Below, one piece after another: positions 55,231-64,000 of a DNA stretch of 64,000 bases. Source of the DNA: an uncultured virus (IMG/VR IMGVR_UViG_3300022602_000034) (Duplodnaviria > Heunggongvirae > Uroviricota > Caudoviricetes); the IMG/VR virus record IMGVR_UViG_3300022602_000034. One strand, written 5' to 3'. The number at the start of each line of letters is the position of its first letter. Within the stretch, counting starts at the first letter, position 1. The translations under genes were made by a program, and so were the position numbers. A model generated the notes under the pieces. The model was not told the origin of the DNA, searched no databases, and was given only the letters and a program-made list of their open reading frames with translations.

Positions 55231-56259
55231 ATGTCAAAAGTGAAACCAACAACAAAAGAACAACTGGTACATTATTTACTGCAAAACATAAGTTTAGGAA
55301 CTTATGATAGACGGTTCCTTTCCAACCTACAACAAATCCAATTTGTACAACGAAGACCTGCGACCAGCAATCAAGCAGAGTTGTTGGACAAGATTACATT
55401 ACGATATTTCAAACAACTTAAACGCAAAGAGATTGACGCAAACGAAATGGTTAAACTACCTTGGAGCATAGAACCAATTGATAGCATCCCAGAATACACT
55501 GATGCTTTTTGTACAATCAAGGATGATACGATTGAGTTACGCACACCCTACAAAAAAGAGTTTATCACTGACTTGAAGAAAACCGATCTACACTTAGACT
55601 GGAATAAGGATAATAGAATATGGAGCGGTGTCTATTGTGAACATATTTTGAAGCACTTCATTGATTGCTTAGACAAACACTTTCAGGTTATAAGATATTG
55701 CGACAAGACAGTTGAGATTATAAATAGTTTCGCAGAATACGAAGAAGCAACATGTTGGGATCCAACATTGAAAATTATCAATGGTAATCTATTGATAGCA
55801 GGGATCAACAATGCATTGAACGAAGCAACTAAAGATATACCACTAACAATTTCTCCCGAGACATTTGCAAAACTATCAATGCACGGTGTTAAAATTGATA
55901 ATGATTTGATAAACGATGATCCATTGTTTAAGTTTGCGACAGAAACTAGCACAGTAAGAAAATACAATGAGATTGCAAACATTGTGAGTGAATTAAAGTC
56001 ATTAGGTTGCGATTTAATTGTCATATCAGAAACTCACTTGAATGGCGCTAAAGTTATTCCTAACTTGATTGAAGAATGTGTCCGACACGACATACCTTAT
56101 TTTCTAAAATCAAAAAATGCACGTTTAACAGAAGACACAAAAAAATTCAAATATCCAGTAATCATTAACACAGGTTTATGGTCTAATTTGAGTAGAGGAA
56201 GTATTTACGCAGCTAAGGTCGTTAACCTTGCAAACGATAAACCAATTAATATTAAATGA
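55231..56259 (+). CDS. hypothetical protein
   Basis: 342 aa; promoter TTGCTT-17-TATAAT with ATG 7 nt downstream. Confidence 0.65.
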   Translation: MSKVKPTTKEQLVHYLLQNISLGTYDRRFLSNLQQIQFVQRRPATSNQAELLDKITLRYFKQLKRKEIDANEMVKLPWSIEPIDSIPEYTDAFCTIKDDTIELRTPYKKEFITDLKKTDLHLDWNKDNRIWSGVYCEHILKHFIDCLDKHFQVIRYCDKTVEIINSFAEYEEATCWDPTLKIINGNLLIAGINNALNEATKDIPLTISPETFAKLSMHGVKIDNDLINDDPLFKFATETSTVRKYNEIANIVSELKSLGCDLIVISETHLNGAKVIPNLIEECVRHDIPYFLKSKNARLTEDTKKFKYPVIINTGLWSNLSRGSIYAAKVVNLANDKPINIK

Positions 56260-57743
56260 AACAATGTAAATTAATCATCAAAGATGAAGTCAATGTAAAA
56301 ATAGAAGGATTAGAGTTAGGTGATCGCAAAACATTGATGAAGATGTTTGAGTATGAGAAGCCGGGTGCAAGATATTTGCCAAGTGTCCGATTAGGTCGTT
56401 GGAATGGCAAGATCAGCTTCTTTAGCTTGGGTGGCACGACTTATGTAAATCTATTGCCAAAGATTCTACCGTTACTTGACAGTGCCGGATACGATATTGA
56501 GTTAGAAGACTTACGCACATACACAACAACATTTCAGTTTGGACAAGTCACTGAAAAAACTTTTGCACATAAAGTATGGCCTGCAAAACACCCAATGGCA
56601 GGACAGCCTGTTGTATTGCGTGACTATCAGATTGAGATTATAAATCAGTTTTTAGTTAATCCACAATCAATACAAGAGATTGCAACTGGCGCAGGTAAAA
56701 CATTAATCACCGCCGCACTATCATATAGCATAGAAAACTATGGACGTAGTATTGTTATTGTACCTAACAAAAGTCTAGTAACACAAACAGAAGCAGACTA
56801 TATTAACTTAGGTCTTGATGTTGGTGTATACTATGGTGACAGAAAAGAGTATGGTAAAAAACATACGATTTGCACATGGCAAAGTTTAGGTAATATGCTT
56901 AAGAAAACAAAAGCAGACGAAGCAGAAATACCAATAGGTGAGTTCTTAGAAGATGTTGTGTGCGTTATGGTTGATGAAGTACACATGGCTAAGGCTGATG
57001 TACTGAAAGAATTATTAACTGGGGTGATGAGTCACATACCAATTCGCTGGGGATTGACTGGAACTATTCCCAAAGCAATCTTTGAAGCACAGGCATTATA
57101 TGTGTCATTAGGTAATGTGACTAATAAACTTGCAGCAAGTACACTTCAAGAAATGGGTGTGCTTGCACAGTGTCACGTTAACATTGTTCAATTGCAAGAC
57201 CAGAAAGAATTCACTAACTATCAAAGTGAATTGAAATTCTTATTAGAAGATGACCAACGATTGACTATGATTTGTCAATTACTTGAAAAGATTAAAGACG
57301 GTGGCAACACATTAATATTAGTAGACCGTGTTGCTGCCGGCAAAGCAATACAAACTAGACTTAGTGAAGCATTTACTAAAGAACGTTTGGATTATGAAGT
57401 TAGTTTCGTTTCAGGCGGGACTGACATGAATGACAGAAAGGAACAGTATGATGAAGTGGCTACAGCTACTAACAAGGTTATTGTGGCGACTTATGGTGTG
57501 GCCGCTGTGGGTATTAATATTCCTAGGATTTTCAATCTGGTTCTTGTGGAACCCGGAAAGAGCTTTGTCAGAGTTATCCAGTCAATTGGACGCGGCATTA
57601 GAAAAGCGGAGGATAAAGATCACGTGATGATATGGGATATCACAAGTTCCTGCAAATTTGCAAAGAGGCATCTTACACAAAGAAAAGCCTTTTATAAAGA
57701 GGCGGCATACCCGTTCTCGATTGAGAAACTAACATATAAGTGA
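56256..57743 (+). CDS. uvsW: SF2 DNA helicase (UvsW-like)
   Basis: LRDYQ, ATGAGKT, VDEVH, GLTGT and QSIGRGIR motifs. Confidence 0.92.
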   Translation: MKQCKLIIKDEVNVKIEGLELGDRKTLMKMFEYEKPGARYLPSVRLGRWNGKISFFSLGGTTYVNLLPKILPLLDSAGYDIELEDLRTYTTTFQFGQVTEKTFAHKVWPAKHPMAGQPVVLRDYQIEIINQFLVNPQSIQEIATGAGKTLITAALSYSIENYGRSIVIVPNKSLVTQTEADYINLGLDVGVYYGDRKEYGKKHTICTWQSLGNMLKKTKADEAEIPIGEFLEDVVCVMVDEVHMAKADVLKELLTGVMSHIPIRWGLTGTIPKAIFEAQALYVSLGNVTNKLAASTLQEMGVLAQCHVNIVQLQDQKEFTNYQSELKFLLEDDQRLTMICQLLEKIKDGGNTLILVDRVAAGKAIQTRLSEAFTKERLDYEVSFVSGGTDMNDRKEQYDEVATATNKVIVATYGVAAVGINIPRIFNLVLVEPGKSFVRVIQSIGRGIRKAEDKDHVMIWDITSSCKFAKRHLTQRKAFYKEAAYPFSIEKLTYK

Positions 57744-57755
57744 TATAATAATACT

Positions 57756-58259
57756 ATGAGAATATTAAATTTAGATAATAACAAATACTATAACTTAGAG
57801 ACATTACCCGAAGAAGTAGATGATTTACGTTTTGCAATACTTGATAATAGCAATCCAAGTAATGTAGACTATCATTATATACCACTAATCTTCTTAGAGA
57901 GTTTCAACAGTCCCGCTCTTGTGTTACGAGTAGGTGACAAGACAATTAAGATGCCAGTAGATTGGCAGATACTGATCGGTGAACCAGAGATGGGTGATTT
58001 AGAAACACTACCATTAACAAGTATCAATGATAGAGGTTTCAAAGCATTTGAATTTAATCCACTAAGTGCATTTAGACCTAGCTTTCAAGATATTGAAATT
58101 ATTGATATCTATCACGATGTAACTTGGTATGCACCGCGATTGAAGAACGGACAATTCTTATGTGTACCCATTGATGATGAAGTGAAACCTCGTTGTGTTT
58201 ACTTTGTAAAAGAGATTAGTCGTAACTGTGAGATTATTGATTACAATCAGGCATTCTAA
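57756..58259 (+). CDS. hypothetical protein
   Basis: 167 aa, beta-rich; promoter TTGAGA-17-TATAAT with ATG 7 nt downstream. Confidence 0.7.
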   Translation: MRILNLDNNKYYNLETLPEEVDDLRFAILDNSNPSNVDYHYIPLIFLESFNSPALVLRVGDKTIKMPVDWQILIGEPEMGDLETLPLTSINDRGFKAFEFNPLSAFRPSFQDIEIIDIYHDVTWYAPRLKNGQFLCVPIDDEVKPRCVYFVKEISRNCEIIDYNQAF

Positions 58260-58855
58260 TGGCAACTAAGAAACCAGCAACTCCCAAAGACGAAAAATTA
58301 GAAAAGCAAGACTTTGATTTGTTTGAGGCACTTGCGGCGTTGGATCGTAAAGATTACAACTATATGGACAAACTTACAGAAGAACAACAACGTAAGTTTG
58401 TTCCTTACATGATGACTCATTGGATGAGTGCTATTAAAGGTAGCGGTGACGTGCAAGGTTATTATGTAATGAGTACTGAGTATAACGCTAATAAATATTT
58501 GTTCAACGAGCATGTACAAAAGCACCCTAAACTACAATGGATGATGTTGTGTGCCAGTAGCCCTGGTTTAGGGAAACAGTTCCATCAATGGATACCTCAT
58601 CTTTCAAGTAAAGTTGCAACACTGAAAGAATCACCTAAACTGAAGGATATTAGAGAATACTATGCTAAAATATACACTAAAGCAGATGATGATTCTATTA
58701 ATGCAATCAGCGAAGCCTTCGTTGAAGAACATAAAAAGAAGGTGTATCTTGCTAAAAGATTCCCTGATTTGAAACTTGATGACATTGAAACCCTTGCACA
58801 ATTGGTAACTGATGAAGACATTAGATCGCATGAAAGAGAACTTGGCAACGAGTAA
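58259..58855 (+). CDS. possible clamp-loader small subunit (gp62-like)
   Basis: FVPYMMTHWMS...N.Y....HPKLQW pattern and replication-gene context; weak. Confidence 0.45.
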   Translation: MATKKPATPKDEKLEKQDFDLFEALAALDRKDYNYMDKLTEEQQRKFVPYMMTHWMSAIKGSGDVQGYYVMSTEYNANKYLFNEHVQKHPKLQWMMLCASSPGLGKQFHQWIPHLSSKVATLKESPKLKDIREYYAKIYTKADDDSINAISEAFVEEHKKKVYLAKRFPDLKLDDIETLAQLVTDEDIRSHERELGNE

Positions 58856-59528
58856 GTACACCTGTGAATTCTGTAATAAGAATTTTACTAGAGATCGTAC
58901 CTTACTCAGCCATATATGTGAAAGAAAATCTCGTTGGTTAAACAAGGATCATCCTAGCAATAGGATTGGGTTTCAATGCTGGGTTAGGTTTTACGAAAAG
59001 CATAGCATGAGTAAAACTAAGAACAAAACAGTTGAAGAATTCATTCGTAGTCCATATTACATTGCATTCGTTAAGTTTGGTACATATTGTGTTGAAAGTA
59101 AAGTAATTCACATACCTCGTTACGTTGATTGGTTGTTGCAAAATCAAATCAAACTAGATAACTGGAATAATGATAGTGTTTACAACAAATTCTTGTGCGA
59201 GTATTTGCGAGTGGAAGATGCATTTGATGCAATATATCGCAGTGTAGAGTATTGTACTACATTGGCTGAACTAGACGAAATTCAACCCAATGATGTATTT
59301 AGGTATAGTAACCCAAATCGTATATGTCACGGTATATGTTCGGGTAAGATAAGTCCATGGATGTTGTATTGTAGCGACAGCGGTATCCATTTACTAGAGA
59401 CTTTAAATGAGACTCAAGTTAAAATGATTAATGATTATATAAATCCAGAACAATGGGCATTGAAGTTTCACCGTGACTCAAAACTTAAACAACAAATCAG
59501 AGACACCCTCATGTCAGCAGGGTACTAG
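58812..59528 (+). CDS. hypothetical protein with an N-terminal zinc finger
   Basis: YTCEFCNKNF...LLSHIC; the real start may be TTG58842. Confidence 0.65.
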   Translation: MKTLDRMKENLATSKYTCEFCNKNFTRDRTLLSHICERKSRWLNKDHPSNRIGFQCWVRFYEKHSMSKTKNKTVEEFIRSPYYIAFVKFGTYCVESKVIHIPRYVDWLLQNQIKLDNWNNDSVYNKFLCEYLRVEDAFDAIYRSVEYCTTLAELDEIQPNDVFRYSNPNRICHGICSGKISPWMLYCSDSGIHLLETLNETQVKMINDYINPEQWALKFHRDSKLKQQIRDTLMSAGY

Positions 59529-59709
59529 AGTACGCATATTCTGGAAGAATGGTGATACTATTAGTGATTGGAATGAAACCTGTGCTTGGGCAATAGAACA
59601 GTTTGGCTTACCTGGTGATAAGTTTACTACACACCCAACAGAAGATTATATGGACTTCTACTTTCAAAATGAATGTGATGCCATTCATTTTAGTTTGAGG
59701 TGGCTATGA
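59473..59709 (+). CDS. F-x-L-R-W array member 1
   Basis: WAIEQFGLPG...FYFQNECDAIHFSLRWL; start uncertain. Confidence 0.7.
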   Translation: MTQNLNNKSETPSCQQGTRVRIFWKNGDTISDWNETCAWAIEQFGLPGDKFTTHPTEDYMDFYFQNECDAIHFSLRWL

Positions 59710-59966
59710 AACTACTGAGATACAATGCTAGACTTAGTACAGGAAAAGAGAATTTTGAGAACTGGACGAAAGTAAATAGTGTCATTCAAAAAAACATGAC
59801 TCCTGAAATCAGTGAAAGATGGATGAAGGATGGGTATGAAGGACTAGCTGACGAGTGGATATTAGAGTACTACGGAATCAATCGTATCTATCGTGATGAA
59901 AATCAATCTATGACATTTGAATTTACTGAGCAGCAGTGGACTTGGTTTTTGTTGAGGTGGTTATGA
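59706..59966 (+). CDS. array member 2
   Basis: Ends WTWFLLRWL. Confidence 0.7.
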   Translation: MKLLRYNARLSTGKENFENWTKVNSVIQKNMTPEISERWMKDGYEGLADEWILEYYGINRIYRDENQSMTFEFTEQQWTWFLLRWL

Positions 59967-60175
59967 AAGTAATTAAATGGTACGAACCCGCATTCAATCC
60001 AATAATGGAACTGATTGAGCGTGAAGCAAAAGAATCAAACTGTGGCAACAGTGAAGGTATGCGTGTGATTGCCGAATACAAGTACGGTGTTAAGATTAGT
60101 AAGTTTGAAGGTGACTGGCGTAGGATTACTGTCTTAGATGAAAAGAAGTATGCTTGGCTATTGTTAAAGATTTGA
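59963..60175 (+). CDS. array member 3
   Basis: Ends DEKKYAWLLLKI. Confidence 0.65.
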   Translation: MKVIKWYEPAFNPIMELIEREAKESNCGNSEGMRVIAEYKYGVKISKFEGDWRRITVLDEKKYAWLLLKI

Positions 60176-60180
60176 AACCG

Positions 60181-60402
60181 ATGAATAAGATAGATAGTTT
60201 AATGAAACAATGGTTTGAAGAACAAGAACTCAATGATAAGTACTGGCCCTATCAGTATGAACTCAAAGACTGGCAGCATATCTACATGGTTGAAAGATTT
60301 TGCTATAGTAATTTCAAAAGTTCTAACTGGCGTAATCGTGGAAGATACTTTGGATTCAAACGCAAACAAGATTATGAATGGTTCTTGTTGAGGTGGCTAT
60401 AA
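60181..60402 (+). CDS. array member 4
   Basis: Ends FGFKRKQDYEWFLLRWL. Confidence 0.7.
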   Translation: MNKIDSLMKQWFEEQELNDKYWPYQYELKDWQHIYMVERFCYSNFKSSNWRNRGRYFGFKRKQDYEWFLLRWL

Positions 60403-60616
60403 TGTATACAAGTATTTGGTATCATGTTGGTGATAACTGTCCAAAAAAAGACGGTTACTACTTGGCATACAAAAAGTCAAGTTTAGGTGACGATGAAGAA
60501 GGTTATGGAGAGACACAGAAGATTTTTCTATGAATGATGTAGGTGGTCGTGATGTGTTGTTCTTTGCCTTCAAAAACGAAAAAGATTTAACATGGTTTAA
60601 GTTGAGATGGAAATGA
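60402..60616 (+). pseudogene. chimeric remnant: truncated unrelated ORF joined out of frame to the C-terminal half of an array member
   Basis: MYTSIWYHVGDNCPKKDGYYLAY...* (60402-60533); another frame gives ...WRDTEDFSMNDVGGRDVLFFAFKNEKDLTWFKLRWK* (ends 60616). Confidence 0.6.
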
Positions 60617-60915
60617 AAACATTTACTGCAAATTGGACGACAGAAGATAGTTACACTGATACTGATACTATTATGTCTTTGGCTTTCAGTAGAGAAATAC
60701 AAGAAGCAATTAACAATGAAACAATGGTTGATATTCACAAGACACAAGGTTGGACTGTTGTTGCGCTTCCTAGATTTAAAGACATGAGGCATGCGGTTGA
60801 CGTTAATGATTGGTGTGTAGTTAATGTAGGTGCAGGTAAGTGGAACAAGTTTGGTAGTACGTATACGTTTAAAGAACAAAAACATGCCGAGTGGTTCATT
60901 TTACGATGGCTGTGA
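60613..60915 (+). CDS. array member 5 with a capsid-like N-terminal segment
   Basis: TANWTTE...IMSLAFSREIQEAINNE; ends FKEQKHAEWFILRWL. Confidence 0.7.
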   Translation: MKTFTANWTTEDSYTDTDTIMSLAFSREIQEAINNETMVDIHKTQGWTVVALPRFKDMRHAVDVNDWCVVNVGAGKWNKFGSTYTFKEQKHAEWFILRWL

Positions 60916-61115
60916 TTGTTAGCAAATACATTTACGGAGACTACAACTCGGATGAAGCAGTAGAATGGGCTATTAACAATTGTCCTAGTTTTGAAAAGTT
61001 TATGATAGTTGAACTTGAATGGGAAGAAAAACAAGAAAGAGATTGTTGGTTTAGACTTGATGTATACTTTACAGATGAGCGTGATGCAACTTTTTATTCA
61101 CTAAGATGGATATGA
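60912..61115 (+). CDS. array member 6
   Basis: Ends YFTDERDATFYSLRWI. Confidence 0.7.
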   Translation: MIVSKYIYGDYNSDEAVEWAINNCPSFEKFMIVELEWEEKQERDCWFRLDVYFTDERDATFYSLRWI

Positions 61116-61339
61116 CAAGAAAATTAAACAAAAGTGTTTGGCCCTATAATATCTATTTTAAAGATAAAGATAATTGGGATGACAATGATACTACCAACAC
61201 TGAACGACTTGATTGGATTCGTGAAAATCTTAATGAGAACATTCGCAACAGAATCTTTATCCTTGAAGATAGTACCGGTATGATGTATTACTTCAAAGAA
61301 GAAAAAGACTATCAATGGTTCCTATGGAGATGGGTGTGA
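61112..61339 (+). CDS. array member 7
   Basis: Ends YFKEEKDYQWFLWRWV. Confidence 0.7.
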   Translation: MTRKLNKSVWPYNIYFKDKDNWDDNDTTNTERLDWIRENLNENIRNRIFILEDSTGMMYYFKEEKDYQWFLWRWV

Positions 61340-61587
61340 TGGATTTTGAACTTGCTGAAGGTAAAGTATATGGTGCAAAATACTATACGGTAAAACCAGT
61401 AGTGCCTGAAATGTATCATCAAATCCAACAGACATGGCTCGACATGATACAGTGGAATGTTGAGACATTCGGTCCATCACTAAAAGAAGATGTCGTCGAA
61501 CCTGGCGGTCGCTGGTACGCTAACAATGCAAAGTTTTGGTTTAAGAACAAAGCAGACCGAGACTGGTTTTTATTGAGGTGGGAATAA
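61339..61587 (+). CDS. array member 8
   Basis: WNVETFGP...WFKNKADRDWFLLRWE. Confidence 0.7.
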   Translation: MDFELAEGKVYGAKYYTVKPVVPEMYHQIQQTWLDMIQWNVETFGPSLKEDVVEPGGRWYANNAKFWFKNKADRDWFLLRWE

Positions 61588-61832
61588 TGACAGTAGAAGC
61601 AACAAAAGAATTTGTACAGATGATTGACAAGTCTGCTAGGGAATGGCGTGCTAGAAAAACCCAATTAGACGAAAAATATCATCACTTTGATTTGTATGCC
61701 GAAGACTTTTTTGGCATCATAGTTGACTTTCAATTATGTGATAACATGGTAGCAGTGTTTGGTGCAGAAGTAATTGATGAAGACAAATACATTAATTTCT
61801 TATTAACATATGGTGAAGTACATGAAGGCTAA
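61587..61832 (+). CDS. array member 9
   Basis: VIDEDKYINFLLTYG. Confidence 0.65.
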   Translation: MTVEATKEFVQMIDKSAREWRARKTQLDEKYHHFDLYAEDFFGIIVDFQLCDNMVAVFGAEVIDEDKYINFLLTYGEVHEG

Positions 61833-62088
61833 GACACAAGAACTAGGATCATTTACCTATTGGACTGAACATTACTACGGAAGCAAACGCAACATTACCA
61901 CTATCAGTTGGAAGGGTAAGGGTGAAGTTGACACTAATGAAATTCGTAAATGGTGTAAGAAGACATTTGGTAAGAGTGGCTACCGTGAAGACATTGAAGA
62001 TAGTTACTGGGTAGACAATACCGAAGTTGGTGAAATCATGTTGTGCAAAGATGAGTTTCTTACTATGTTTCTATTGAGGTGGACATGA
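61822..62088 (+). CDS. array member 10
   Basis: WCKKTFG...FLTMFLLRWT. Confidence 0.7.
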   Translation: MKAKTQELGSFTYWTEHYYGSKRNITTISWKGKGEVDTNEIRKWCKKTFGKSGYREDIEDSYWVDNTEVGEIMLCKDEFLTMFLLRWT

Positions 62089-62474
62089 CACAATACGATC
62101 CTAACACAGCCGCTAATGTAACGGCTACGGCACAGCAGATACTCATGCCCATGATTAAAAAATTTACACCCACATTACTGGCAATGGCACATAGTATCTT
62201 GGGCGTACAACCTATGACTGGGTCTGTTGGTCAAATCTTTTCCATAGGAGCCAGCTACAAACCACAATCCAAATACAAATTCAGTCGTGCCAAGTGGTAC
62301 GAAGCAGACCATCGCTACGAAGACTACGAGGAAGTTATAGCATGGTGTACTGAACATTTTGGCCCACGACCTCGTTATCCTGATGCATGGACACGCTGGG
62401 CTGATATTCACATTGATAAAATTCGATTCCGTGACGAAAAAGATTATGCTTGGTTTGTATTACGCTGGTCATGA
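62085..62474 (+). CDS. array member 11 with a major-capsid (Gol-region)-like N-terminal segment
   Basis: ILMPMIKKFTPTLLA..HSILGVQPMTGSVGQIFSI; WCTEHFGP; ends FRDEKDYAWFVLRWS. Confidence 0.75.
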   Translation: MTQYDPNTAANVTATAQQILMPMIKKFTPTLLAMAHSILGVQPMTGSVGQIFSIGASYKPQSKYKFSRAKWYEADHRYEDYEEVIAWCTEHFGPRPRYPDAWTRWADIHIDKIRFRDEKDYAWFVLRWS

Positions 62475-62746
62475 AATATAATCTCAATAGAAGCATAGGC
62501 TGGAACTTAGATATGACCAACATGATAATAACACAACGAATTTATAATGGCGCTGATTGTTATAATTGGACTGAATATTTTGCTATCATTCCTAGACGAA
62601 CCGTATCAGGTAAACTAGTATTCTGGCAAAAAGCATATAAGCGTAAGTTCTGGGCAGTGTGGGGTAATGGGTTTCATATGGAACCTGAAGTTGAATACGG
62701 GACACTGTTTGATGTTTTGACACATCCCTGTGTCAACGCCCCATAA
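62471..62746 (+). CDS. hypothetical protein inside the array (not LRW type)
   Basis: WTEYFAIIPRRTVSGKLVFW; ATGA-coupled. Confidence 0.6.
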   Translation: MKYNLNRSIGWNLDMTNMIITQRIYNGADCYNWTEYFAIIPRRTVSGKLVFWQKAYKRKFWAVWGNGFHMEPEVEYGTLFDVLTHPCVNAP

Positions 62747-62778
62747 GGTTTGTGCGTTATTAGTATACAGGAGTAGAT

Positions 62779-62973
62779 ATGACTTATTCTGAATGCCACA
62801 ATAACGCACACTGGACGACCAAAACCGTTGGTCCTTTTTTGAGAAAAATGCATGATAAAGTTGAGAGGTGGTGCGATATCTATTTGGGCAACAATAACTA
62901 TTGCAGCGACGGATACCATTATTCTTTCAAATATAAAAAGCATGCGGAAATGTTTGCTTTAAGATGGCTGTAA
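62779..62973 (+). CDS. array member 12
   Basis: RWCDIYLG...FKYKKHAEMFALRWL. Confidence 0.7.
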   Translation: MTYSECHNNAHWTTKTVGPFLRKMHDKVERWCDIYLGNNNYCSDGYHYSFKYKKHAEMFALRWL

Positions 62974-63206
62974 CTATAAAATTACCAAAAGGATTAGAAC
63001 CAAAACAAGAACAGTGGCTTATTAAGAATATAGGCCCGAGACTCCATTACATGCACAACTCAATAGGTGGACAAGGTTGGATCGCAAAAAAACAAAAGGT
63101 TATAGTTCAGAATGAGGATGTAGGAACTCACAGTTCTGTAGTTCAATGGGATTTAACTTTCCAAGATGACAAGATGGCAACTTGGTTCACAATTATGTTT
63201 TCATAA
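62964..63206 (+). CDS. array member 13
   Basis: WLIKNIGP...FQDDKMATWFTIMFS. Confidence 0.65.
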   Translation: MAVTIKLPKGLEPKQEQWLIKNIGPRLHYMHNSIGGQGWIAKKQKVIVQNEDVGTHSSVVQWDLTFQDDKMATWFTIMFS

Positions 63207-63424
63207 TGTTACAAGTTAGATTGATAGACAAGATGCCCAATGAGATTATGGACATTGTTAGAGAACTTAGACAACAGGGGTATACTCAAGGTACTGATTT
63301 TGATTTTGCGTACAATAAACCCAAATATGATGACTTGAGCCATGATGCAGTGTATAATAGACATACTGTGTTTACATTCTACAAAGAAGAATTAGCAACA
63401 TGGTTTAGTCTAAGGTATGAATAA
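63206..63424 (+). CDS. array member 14
   Basis: Ends FYKEELATWFSLRYE. Confidence 0.7.
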   Translation: MLQVRLIDKMPNEIMDIVRELRQQGYTQGTDFDFAYNKPKYDDLSHDAVYNRHTVFTFYKEELATWFSLRYE

Positions 63425-63705
63425 TGGCAATAGCAGGAATTGGTAATAGTACAGGTACATTTGCACCATTGCAACATGTAACTCAACCTGATCGCACCTC
63501 TTACGAAACAACTAGTCGTGGTCGTATTACTCATAAGATTGATTTGAATTATCAAAAGGTTGATCCAAATGATTATATCAAATGGTGTCGTAGAAATTTA
63601 GGTGAGCGCGGTATTGCTTGGGACTTCTGGTTAGCCGGAAACGTGTTATATATTGAAATCTGGGACGACAAGGCAAAGTTTATTTACGAAATGTGGAAGA
63701 ACTAA
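63424..63705 (+). CDS. array member 15
   Basis: KWCRRNLGERG...WDDKAKFIYEMWKN. Confidence 0.6.
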   Translation: MAIAGIGNSTGTFAPLQHVTQPDRTSYETTSRGRITHKIDLNYQKVDPNDYIKWCRRNLGERGIAWDFWLAGNVLYIEIWDDKAKFIYEMWKN

Positions 63706-64000
63706 ATGGCAGCGGACATTATGATTGACATTGAGAGTTTGTCAACAGACCCTTATTGTGTTATACTTACAATTGGTGCAGTGCGCTTTGATCCAAAAGG
63801 TACTGGCATCGCTGAGAGATTGGAACTCAGACCAACAATCGAAGAACAGACAGACACATACAATAGGATAATTGATGATGATACATTACGTTGGTGGGGT
63901 GAGCAGTCAGCAGCAGCCCAAGAAGAAGCATTGGGGGACAGAGATAGAATCTCATTTAAAGAATGCATGGAAAAGTTATATAGCTTCTGCTGGAATCGCC
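63706..64000 (+). CDS. DEDD 3'-5' exo(ribo)nuclease, partial (runs off the window)
   Basis: MAADIMIDIESLSTDPYCVILTIGAVRFDP...DTLRWW. Confidence 0.8.
   Translation, partial: MAADIMIDIESLSTDPYCVILTIGAVRFDPKGTGIAERLELRPTIEEQTDTYNRIIDDDTLRWWGEQSAAAQEEALGDRDRISFKECMEKLYSFCWNR

Follow-up and report, generated by a model that had tools for sequence, protein, structure and literature searches.

The Gol Peptide and Related Systems

According to a review, Gol is a 29-residue region of gp23, phage T4's major capsid protein (MCP), and the most conserved part of that protein; it binds domains II-III of EF-Tu and promotes cleavage by Lit (PMC3014915). Gol is also described there as preferring EF-Tu-GDP and inhibiting the EF-Tu GTPase, and authors cited in the review suggested that binding to host EF-Tu is common to the gp23 proteins of all T4-related phages (PMC3014915). 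Here we describe a phage gene in which a homologous stretch stands apart from the capsid protein, fused to a small domain (the LRW domain) that recurs in a tandem array. The gene lies in a stretch of 64,000 nucleotides (nt) of DNA (the window) belonging to IMG/VR record IMGVR_UViG_3300022602_000034, an uncultured virus of the Caudoviricetes. The Gol peptide itself we take to be gp23 residues 93-122.

In the T4 prohead, the N-terminal stretch of gp23 is disordered and probably contacts the scaffold core. The N-terminal region becomes the N-arm and N-fist, which have extensive contacts both within and between capsomers, and linkers equivalent to the E-loop carry the inserted I domain (PMC9546572). 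On the host side, a preprint reports that core phage proteins, among them the MCP and helicase/RecA-type ATPases, are detected by many bacterial STAND sensors (bioRxiv 10.64898/2026.01.04.697583).

The closest described system is Gol, a cofactor of the e14 Lit protease. The two stretches are homologous, with residues 18-59 of the fusion protein aligning with gp23 93-132, and Gol, at 29 residues, is likewise described as a short peptide that is active apart from the folded capsid protein (PMC3014915). The differences are that the stretch found here belongs to a separate gene and is fused to a small domain, that identity is only ~40%, and that this copy carries a 2-residue insertion before the GVQPM motif.

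MCP paralogues such as the vertex protein gp24 derive, like the fusion protein, from the MCP gene family. In the present case only ~50 of ~400 MCP residues are kept, and the fusion protein therefore has no HK97 fold. The internal proteins of T4 are small hypervariable accessory proteins whose N-terminal capsid-targeting sequence ends in an L/I-x-E prohead-protease site. They share with the fusion protein its small size, its accessory nature and a short N-terminal peptide referring to the head; here, however, the conserved part is C-terminal and the N-terminal module is derived from the MCP. The L/I-x-E protease motif was not found in residues 1-20 of the fusion protein. The hyperplastic-region cassettes of T4-type phages, shuffled by way of PeSL motifs (an early promoter and a stem-loop terminator flanking the cassette), are described as runs of small accessory open reading frames (ORFs) between core genes that are gained, lost and exchanged through recombination at conserved junctions (PMC2839356, PMC4122927), and in this they resemble the array. 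They differ in that the junction here is coding (at five junctions the codons of the LRW domain double as a putative ribosome site) and that the array members are paralogues with a common domain. A scan with consensus models found no enrichment of promoters or terminators.

A Capsid Fragment on an Array Domain

The fusion gene and its parts are listed below, in window coordinates.

62085..62474, + strand: fusion gene, 129 amino acids (aa) and stop, from the ORF listing; homologues also begin MT..
62076..62082, + strand: GAGGTGG, a Shine-Dalgarno-like site within the L-R-W codons (TTG-AGG-TGG) of the upstream array gene (TTGAGGTGG)
62106..62258, + strand: MCP-derived segment, aa 8-58, found by Pfam, PHROG, BLASTP and hhalign; equivalent to aa 50-97 of the phage's own MCP and to ~93-132 of T4 gp23 (Gol region)
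62202-62216, + strand: invariant GVQPM inside the MCP-derived segment
62271..62471, + strand: C-terminal LRW domain (C-domain), aa 63-129, predicted to fold as beta-alpha-beta-beta-alpha with a predicted local distance difference test score (pLDDT) of ~90

The capsid likeness of the N-terminal segment (N-segment) goes far beyond chance. The Pfam family Gp23 (PF07068) matched the fusion protein at E 1.4e-8 and 35 bits (cut-off 24.4) over positions 2-59 of 376, and phrog_138 (major head protein) matched it at E 9.9e-9. When the whole genome was scanned, PF07068 found the full MCP (profile positions 1-354) and the fusion fragment (E 2.3e-9) only. BLASTP against the phage's own 404-aa MCP gave 22 identities in 51 positions (43%; E 7e-12) with MCP residues 50-97, a region that starts downstream of the propeptide part (residue 50). 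Alignment of the profile of the N-module family with an MCP profile in hhalign reached a probability of 99.5% and E 4.8e-23, against E 0.0056 for the reversed-profile control. A phmmer search of PDB sequences, weak when taken alone (E 0.02), placed residues 18-59 in register with T4 gp23 93-132 (chain 6uzc_a). In terms of structure, the segment comprises the mature N-arm and the first E-loop/I-linker strand of Gp23-type MCPs. The fusion protein is an MCP fragment and not a full-length HK97-type capsid protein. The identity of such fragments to own-type MCPs (46%) was similar to that to two other T4-like clades (48% and 45%) and did not point to a parent clade.

The remainder of the protein is the domain common to the array. 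A hidden Markov model (HMM) of this C-domain found eight ORFs at E<0.01 in the genome, all inside 59473-63705 of the window, plus borderline ones; the fusion protein shares the domain with at least seven tandem paralogs. The preliminary description had proposed an N-terminal capsid segment matching the T4 Gol region, followed by an ordinary array domain, and both halves of that proposal are borne out by PF07068, BLASTP with the own MCP, phmmer, hhalign and the C-domain HMM. The comparison with the gp23-family profile and the phage's own MCP, by which it wished the likeness to be checked, gave significant matches in each case.

AlphaFold2 modelling of the 131-aa form from an alignment of 53 sequences gave residues 65-131 as a beta-alpha-beta-beta-alpha fold (pLDDT ~90), and left the capsid-like segment (pLDDT ~50) without a confident fold of its own; the capsid-like peptide is accordingly predicted to be flexible and exposed. 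As modelled, the C-domain is novel, no convincing relative having been found in fold searches. Foldseek against PDB gave nothing at E<=1e-3, and VIA-align over 48,161 chains gave a best Z of 4.8 and none >=5. Searches with the C-domain returned only uncharacterised uncultured-phage proteins from BFVD and only hypothetical viral clusters from the ESM Atlas. In PDB sequences the C-domain region also matched an unrelated family of proteins (E 0.04-0.1), which was taken as chance. A longer fused form of the domain was seen only in protein P0121, where it is a read-through of two neighbouring array ORFs.

Reading Frame and Support from Environmental DNA

The open frame on the + strand runs from 62079 to 62474 (131 codons), and its earliest in-frame start, a GTG at 62079, would give a protein of 131 aa. 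The true start is likely the ATG at 62085, the coordinate already given in the preliminary description, whose span 62085-62246 comprises codons 1-54 and ends in ..GQIFSI as quoted there. This ATG stands 2 nt downstream of GAGGTGG (62076-62082), the putative ribosome site of the fusion gene, and is overlapped by the TGA of the upstream array gene as ATGA.

The fusion gene is not an assembly artefact. A second IMG/VR contig (L008) carries it at 99% identity, and many further contigs carry it at 40-87%. Twenty-four listed DNA runs, from 21 studies of lake and freshwater metagenomes (2012-2018), contain the fusion stretch, with no RNA run among those listed, and assemblies from runs dated 2012 and 2018 carry the gene. 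In run X3 a contig spans 61700-62610, across the fusion, with 0 differences. In run X1 a contig spans 61700-62493 with 13 differences, all 13 of which are at third codon positions and lie in the part encoding the C-domain.

One run contained a variant without the gene.

62083..62519: 437 nt missing from a variant, taking in the entire fusion gene and the first part of the ORF after it; seen in a single 171-nt contig of run X10 at depth 15.5

This contig joins 62082 to 62520, with 6 shared letters at the joint. In natural populations, therefore, the fusion gene is a cassette that may be there or be lacking, and the position of the joint suggests that the real start of the next ORF is the ATG at 62514.

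Selection and Module Shuffling

Selection was estimated by pairwise Nei-Gojobori comparison of 14 sequences (91 pairs), with contig L008 left out since its protein is identical to that of the window, and with pairs taken as usable at a synonymous divergence (dS) of 0.05-1.5. The ratio of nonsynonymous to synonymous divergence (omega) had a median of 0.21 for the N-segment (range 0.06-0.54; 22 of 91 pairs usable) and of 0.19 for the C-domain (range 0-0.42; 27 of 91 pairs usable). Purifying selection acts on the capsid-like segment. This result, with the difference in pLDDT between domain and segment, agrees with the description of the protein as an isolated capsid epitope on a small scaffold that had been put forward from the sequence.

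Across 53 fusion proteins, Q44, F54 and most C-domain tryptophans are among the residues that never vary, and I26, P31, A37, I40, G42, V43, P45 and M46 of the N-segment are nearly invariant. For comparison with MCPs 21 segments were used; L078, a truncated true MCP, was left out, and L032, L047 and L051 were dropped, as fewer than 28 of their residues aligned. At least 95% of the 21 fragments retain P, A, I and GVQPM, which are invariant in MCPs; R-R and T-G-P are relaxed, and the minimal module common to all fragments ends at GVQPM. Pairwise identity was 52% among the fragments versus 91% among eight own-type MCPs. The gene is a real, conserved, accessory chimera and not a dying gene.

Module and scaffold do not always share a history. 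Between the window and locus L009 dS was 0.50 for the N-segment and 0.21 for the C-domain, and between L011 and L014 it was 2.7 and 0.30; such unequal values in some pairs indicate recombination between module and scaffold. Moreover, the N-arm module with the same leader also occurs on a second scaffold subfamily, termed 'KYWPYQ' (L047/L096, L051, L054, L056, L058 and L063), and on two further C-termini (L061, L095). The N-arm module has moved among different scaffold domains within arrays. Two other members of the window array are listed here.

60181..60402, + strand: array member of the KYWPYQ subfamily, itself with no capsid segment; its orthologues in other phages, L047/L096, L051, L054, L056, L058 and L063 (BLASTP E 1.7e-13 to 2.7e-18), do have the N-arm module
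60607..60915, + strand: second array member with an MCP-derived N-module, here made up of the E-loop's return strand and the beginning of the spine helix (columns 172-224 of the MCP profile)

An alignment of the 60607-60915 family (15 sequences) matched the MCP profile in hhalign with a probability of 96.3% and E 1.8e-9 (reversed control E 0.022), and a profile of the 60607-type N-modules only found the true MCP genes of genomes G000-G004 at E 2e-8 to 1e-7. When an MCP HMM was run over all small ORFs of the related loci, this second piece (columns 164-224) was also found in L066 (1.5e-7), L041 (2.3e-4) and L025 (2.7e-3). In L066 (1299-2071) and L025 (6007-6668) the ORF with the second piece follows directly after the N-arm ORF, each with its own LRW domain, which gives the impression of a duplicated capsid gene split up by cassettes. 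Among the 16 array members of the window tested by hhalign, only the fusion gene and 60607-60915 matched the MCP. Further MCP pieces considered in the genes at 61339 and 61810 were dropped, as 14 of the 16 members gave E 0.026-0.8, within the range of the reversed controls (0.0056-0.48).

A third MCP motif, [FY][FYC][AC]PY[IV] (YYAPYIP type, from the C-terminal part of the MCP), was found in 8 of 5772 small ORFs (7 distinct). All are LRW-domain proteins with the motif just before the domain; among 168 large ORFs it was found in 17, all of them MCPs. Carriers include L032:6132-6572, L012:5615-5956, L040:5887-6291, L061:6381-6704 and the proteins P0093, P0095 and P0102. In L032 and P0093 the third motif comes immediately after GVQPM, like a mini-MCP with the middle deleted.

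The scaffold also carries modules of other origin. In a census of the best 120 cluster representatives of 134 matches, 58 had the MCP module, 47 a Walker-A (P-loop) module, 1 both and 14 another; the one with both, P0030, has the MCP and Walker-A modules in tandem. Walker-A modules replace the capsid segment in P0077, P0085, P0097 and others, and in L010:9657-10136, L051:5974-6414 and L062:368-748. The Walker-A module matched the H1 motif of the phage's own DnaB-type helicase (hmmsearch E 0.0015; hhalign probability 59%, 28 columns) and its own TerL at E 0.08 with a probability of 9.7%. Matches to Pfam DnaB_C (E 0.011-0.12) were below the cut-off. As judged from these matches, the parent of the module would appear to be a helicase rather than a terminase. 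In P0096, of the same scaffold subfamily, the module is a Laminin_G_3 fragment (Pfam E 6.4e-7, above the cut-off); this protein also has weak PHROG matches to baseplate and virion structural proteins.

Size and Spread of the Family

A word-indexed search of 5.8 billion proteins returned 134 relatives of 72-230 aa, many of them ~128 aa long and pre-annotated PF07068. The same kind of search with the N-segment alone gave 6 close relatives and was too insensitive for a census. An exhaustive profile search of 1.84 billion representatives gave 1380 matches at E<=1e-3, 158 at <=1e-10 and 16 at <=1e-30. Among the best 150 representatives, 143 had the C-domain and 56 were small proteins (104-158 aa) with the capsid N-arm module, 22 on the fusion protein's scaffold and 34 on other or divergent C-termini. 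Small N-arm proteins thus form at least 56 clusters at 50% identity. One match, P0134 (1194 aa, E 1.3e-30, 19 matched stretches), is an ORF of perfect tandem repeats whose short likeness (..SPMIRDVMPAF..) is due to chance, and not a relative; repeat proteins can, as this case illustrates, mislead profile searches.

Among 50,697 cultured phage records, tblastn with the fusion protein found only MCP genes, over residues 20-60, and 0 of the 63 matching records covered at least 80% of the protein. Against cultured phages, megablast of 60000-64000 and tblastn of a Walker-A sister protein gave no match. The complete 364-kb genome G001 holds a single full MCP and, at separate sites, two small N-arm ORFs, and G004 holds one small N-arm ORF; none were found in G002 (81% complete), G003 (99%) and G005. 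The contigs of L013, L016, L054, L056 and L058 carry no full MCP. No paper describing such MCP-fragment genes was found in the main texts of the freely accessible literature.

Candidate Functions

The reading we favour, with a probability of about 0.35, is that the fusion protein would be a mimic of new, unassembled MCP that occupies a host factor, either EF-Tu-linked or otherwise capsid-sensing. The capsid peptide, predicted to be carried exposed on a small self-folding domain, would be what selection keeps and would work in trans, competing with the real MCP for a factor that recognises the invariant stretch. The partner would presumably be a host factor, occupied or blunted by the mimic. 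An EF-Tu-linked or capsid-sensing partner was chosen because the Gol-EF-Tu/Lit interaction is the only experimentally known trans activity of the stretch. Since the array lies in a replication and recombination block, the fusion protein would precede the late capsid protein.

Several points weigh against this mimicry. The early production of the fusion protein would follow from its gene neighbourhood only, and a consensus promoter scan gave 24 promoter-like sites against 26.1 expected, with no enrichment. The default expectation for a Gol-like peptide would be activation of a Lit-type protease and not its inhibition. Two extra residues separate the conserved A from GVQPM in the window copy (..LLAMAHSILGV..); the 99% identical L008 has this insertion too, and the other sequences shown in the alignments lack it. 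Beyond GVQPM, some fragments have relaxed or lost the T-G-P positions. For the second MCP piece, the Walker-A module and the Laminin_G_3 module we know of no peptide-level sensor. Avs-type sensors, as the preprint describes them, read folded shapes via extended interfaces (10.64898/2026.01.04.697583), and these a peptide of 26-50 residues cannot be expected to copy.

In a wider form of the mimicry, which we regard as unlikely, the array would be a library of 'self-peptide' baits, invariant and unmutable peptides of the phage's own core proteins presented on one scaffold and made early, blinding or pre-empting the host's pattern recognition of nascent phage proteins. The peptides would be at least three separate MCP pieces and a P-loop helicase-like fragment in sister proteins, making the library the viral equivalent of integrated decoys. 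An E-loop-like epitope may also be rebuilt by pairing of the two proteins with MCP pieces.

A partner in the capsid itself, though somewhat doubtful, is the alternative with most to be said for it: the peptide would dock on MCP subunits, capsomers or scaffold, of its own or of a competing phage, and modulate or poison head assembly, possibly jointly with the second protein bearing an MCP piece. The pieces captured are both inter-subunit elements, namely the N-arm with the first E-loop/I-linker strand (piece A) and the return strand with the spine helix (piece B, 60607-60915), and the N-terminal region of T4 gp23 is described as making contacts within and between capsomers (PMC9546572). Pieces A and B stand in adjacent ORFs in L066 and L025, and the third MCP motif, where it occurs in small ORFs, is confined to LRW-domain proteins. 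However, of 58 array loci 27 have A and 34 have B, and the 19 with both do not amount to a significant association (odds ratio 2.5; Fisher p 0.11); nor were these loci independent or ascertained at random. The fragment stands as far from own-type MCPs as from other clades, and therefore no specificity is visible. Moreover, the gene lies in a replication block far from the head genes, the fusion protein is without the MCP propeptide that precedes the mature N-terminus, and the gene is accessory, small N-arm ORFs being absent even from the 99%-complete G003.

That the segment is a relic of recombination seems improbable. On this account a cassette-shuffling array once broke up or sampled a duplicated MCP gene, function resides in the LRW domain, and the segment is a mere N-terminal extension. 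It would accommodate the mosaic dS values (window vs L009; L011 vs L014), hybrids such as P0030, P0069 and P0076, the consecutive MCP pieces in adjacent ORFs, the other N-modules on the same scaffold (47 Walker-A and 14 other among the best 120), the gain and loss seen in the presence/absence variant of run X10, and the much faster evolution of the fragment than of the MCP segment. It does not sit well with an omega in the segment equal to that of the domain, with the MCP-invariant residues being kept, or with a module that is found in at least 56 clusters and recurs, leader included, on different scaffolds. Very improbable, to our mind, is a co-option of EF-Tu without any link to defence, in which the peptide would bind EF-Tu as Gol does and throttle or redirect host translation for the phage. 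The described preference of Gol for EF-Tu-GDP, its inhibition of the GTPase and the proposal that gp23 of T4-related phages binds EF-Tu (PMC3014915) would favour it, as would the register of the fusion segment with gp23 93-132; but the other MCP pieces and the P-loop modules on the same scaffold are left unexplained by it, and the gene is accessory.

The Gol stretch is a part of T4-type MCPs that phages cannot easily change, and it is the classic phage peptide read by host defence (Lit via EF-Tu). A gene family that keeps this stretch under selection, free-standing and moved among scaffolds implies a trans-acting partner worth competing for. If that partner were a host sensor, the family would represent a new principle of counter-defence, in which the phage mimics its own trigger, and would offer a handle on which core-protein peptides are sensed. 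If it were the capsid, the fusion protein would be a new kind of assembly modulator. Whichever partner applies, this natural minimal construct makes the suggested binding of Gol to EF-Tu across T4-like phages directly testable.

The Array and Its Surroundings

The array and its neighbours are as follows.

59473..63705, + strand: tandem array of ~16 small same-strand genes, most ending in the LRW domain (C-domain HMM, ORF listing)
56256-57743: DNA helicase gene, one flank of the array
57756-59528: three conserved genes of unassigned function (phrog_11279, 11758, 11058), between the helicase gene and the array
63706-: exonuclease gene, the other flank of the array
62514-62746: ORF inside the array, without the LRW domain and with no Pfam or PHROG match

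At five junctions of the array (59700-59709, 59957-59966, 60393-60402, 61578-61587 and 62079-62088) the C-terminal L-R-W codons read TTGAGGTGG, and the stop is overlapped or directly adjoined by the ATG of the next gene. The codons of the conserved protein tail therefore also supply the gene that follows with a Shine-Dalgarno-like site. The array is translationally coupled, and it gains and loses cassettes; related loci hold arrays of 2-16 such ORFs. Upstream of the array lie gp32-like, UvsX-like and UvsY-like genes and the large terminase, and the phage's own MCP gene, at G000:C1:18297-19511 on the minus strand, is ~105 kb away.

The window is part of a 156,918-bp IMG/VR record (45% complete by CheckV) with one full Gp23-type capsid gene. 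Capsid similarity (64-67% identity) groups the phage with jumbo phages of ~290-470 kb, namely Vibrio 2.275.O, PA5oct, GAP32/121Q-like phages and Sinorhizobium Phosso. A terminator scan made with consensus models gave 3 terminator-like sites against 3.0 expected. A terminator-like hairpin at 62817-62833 follows the ORF at 62514-62746 and lies inside the following gene.

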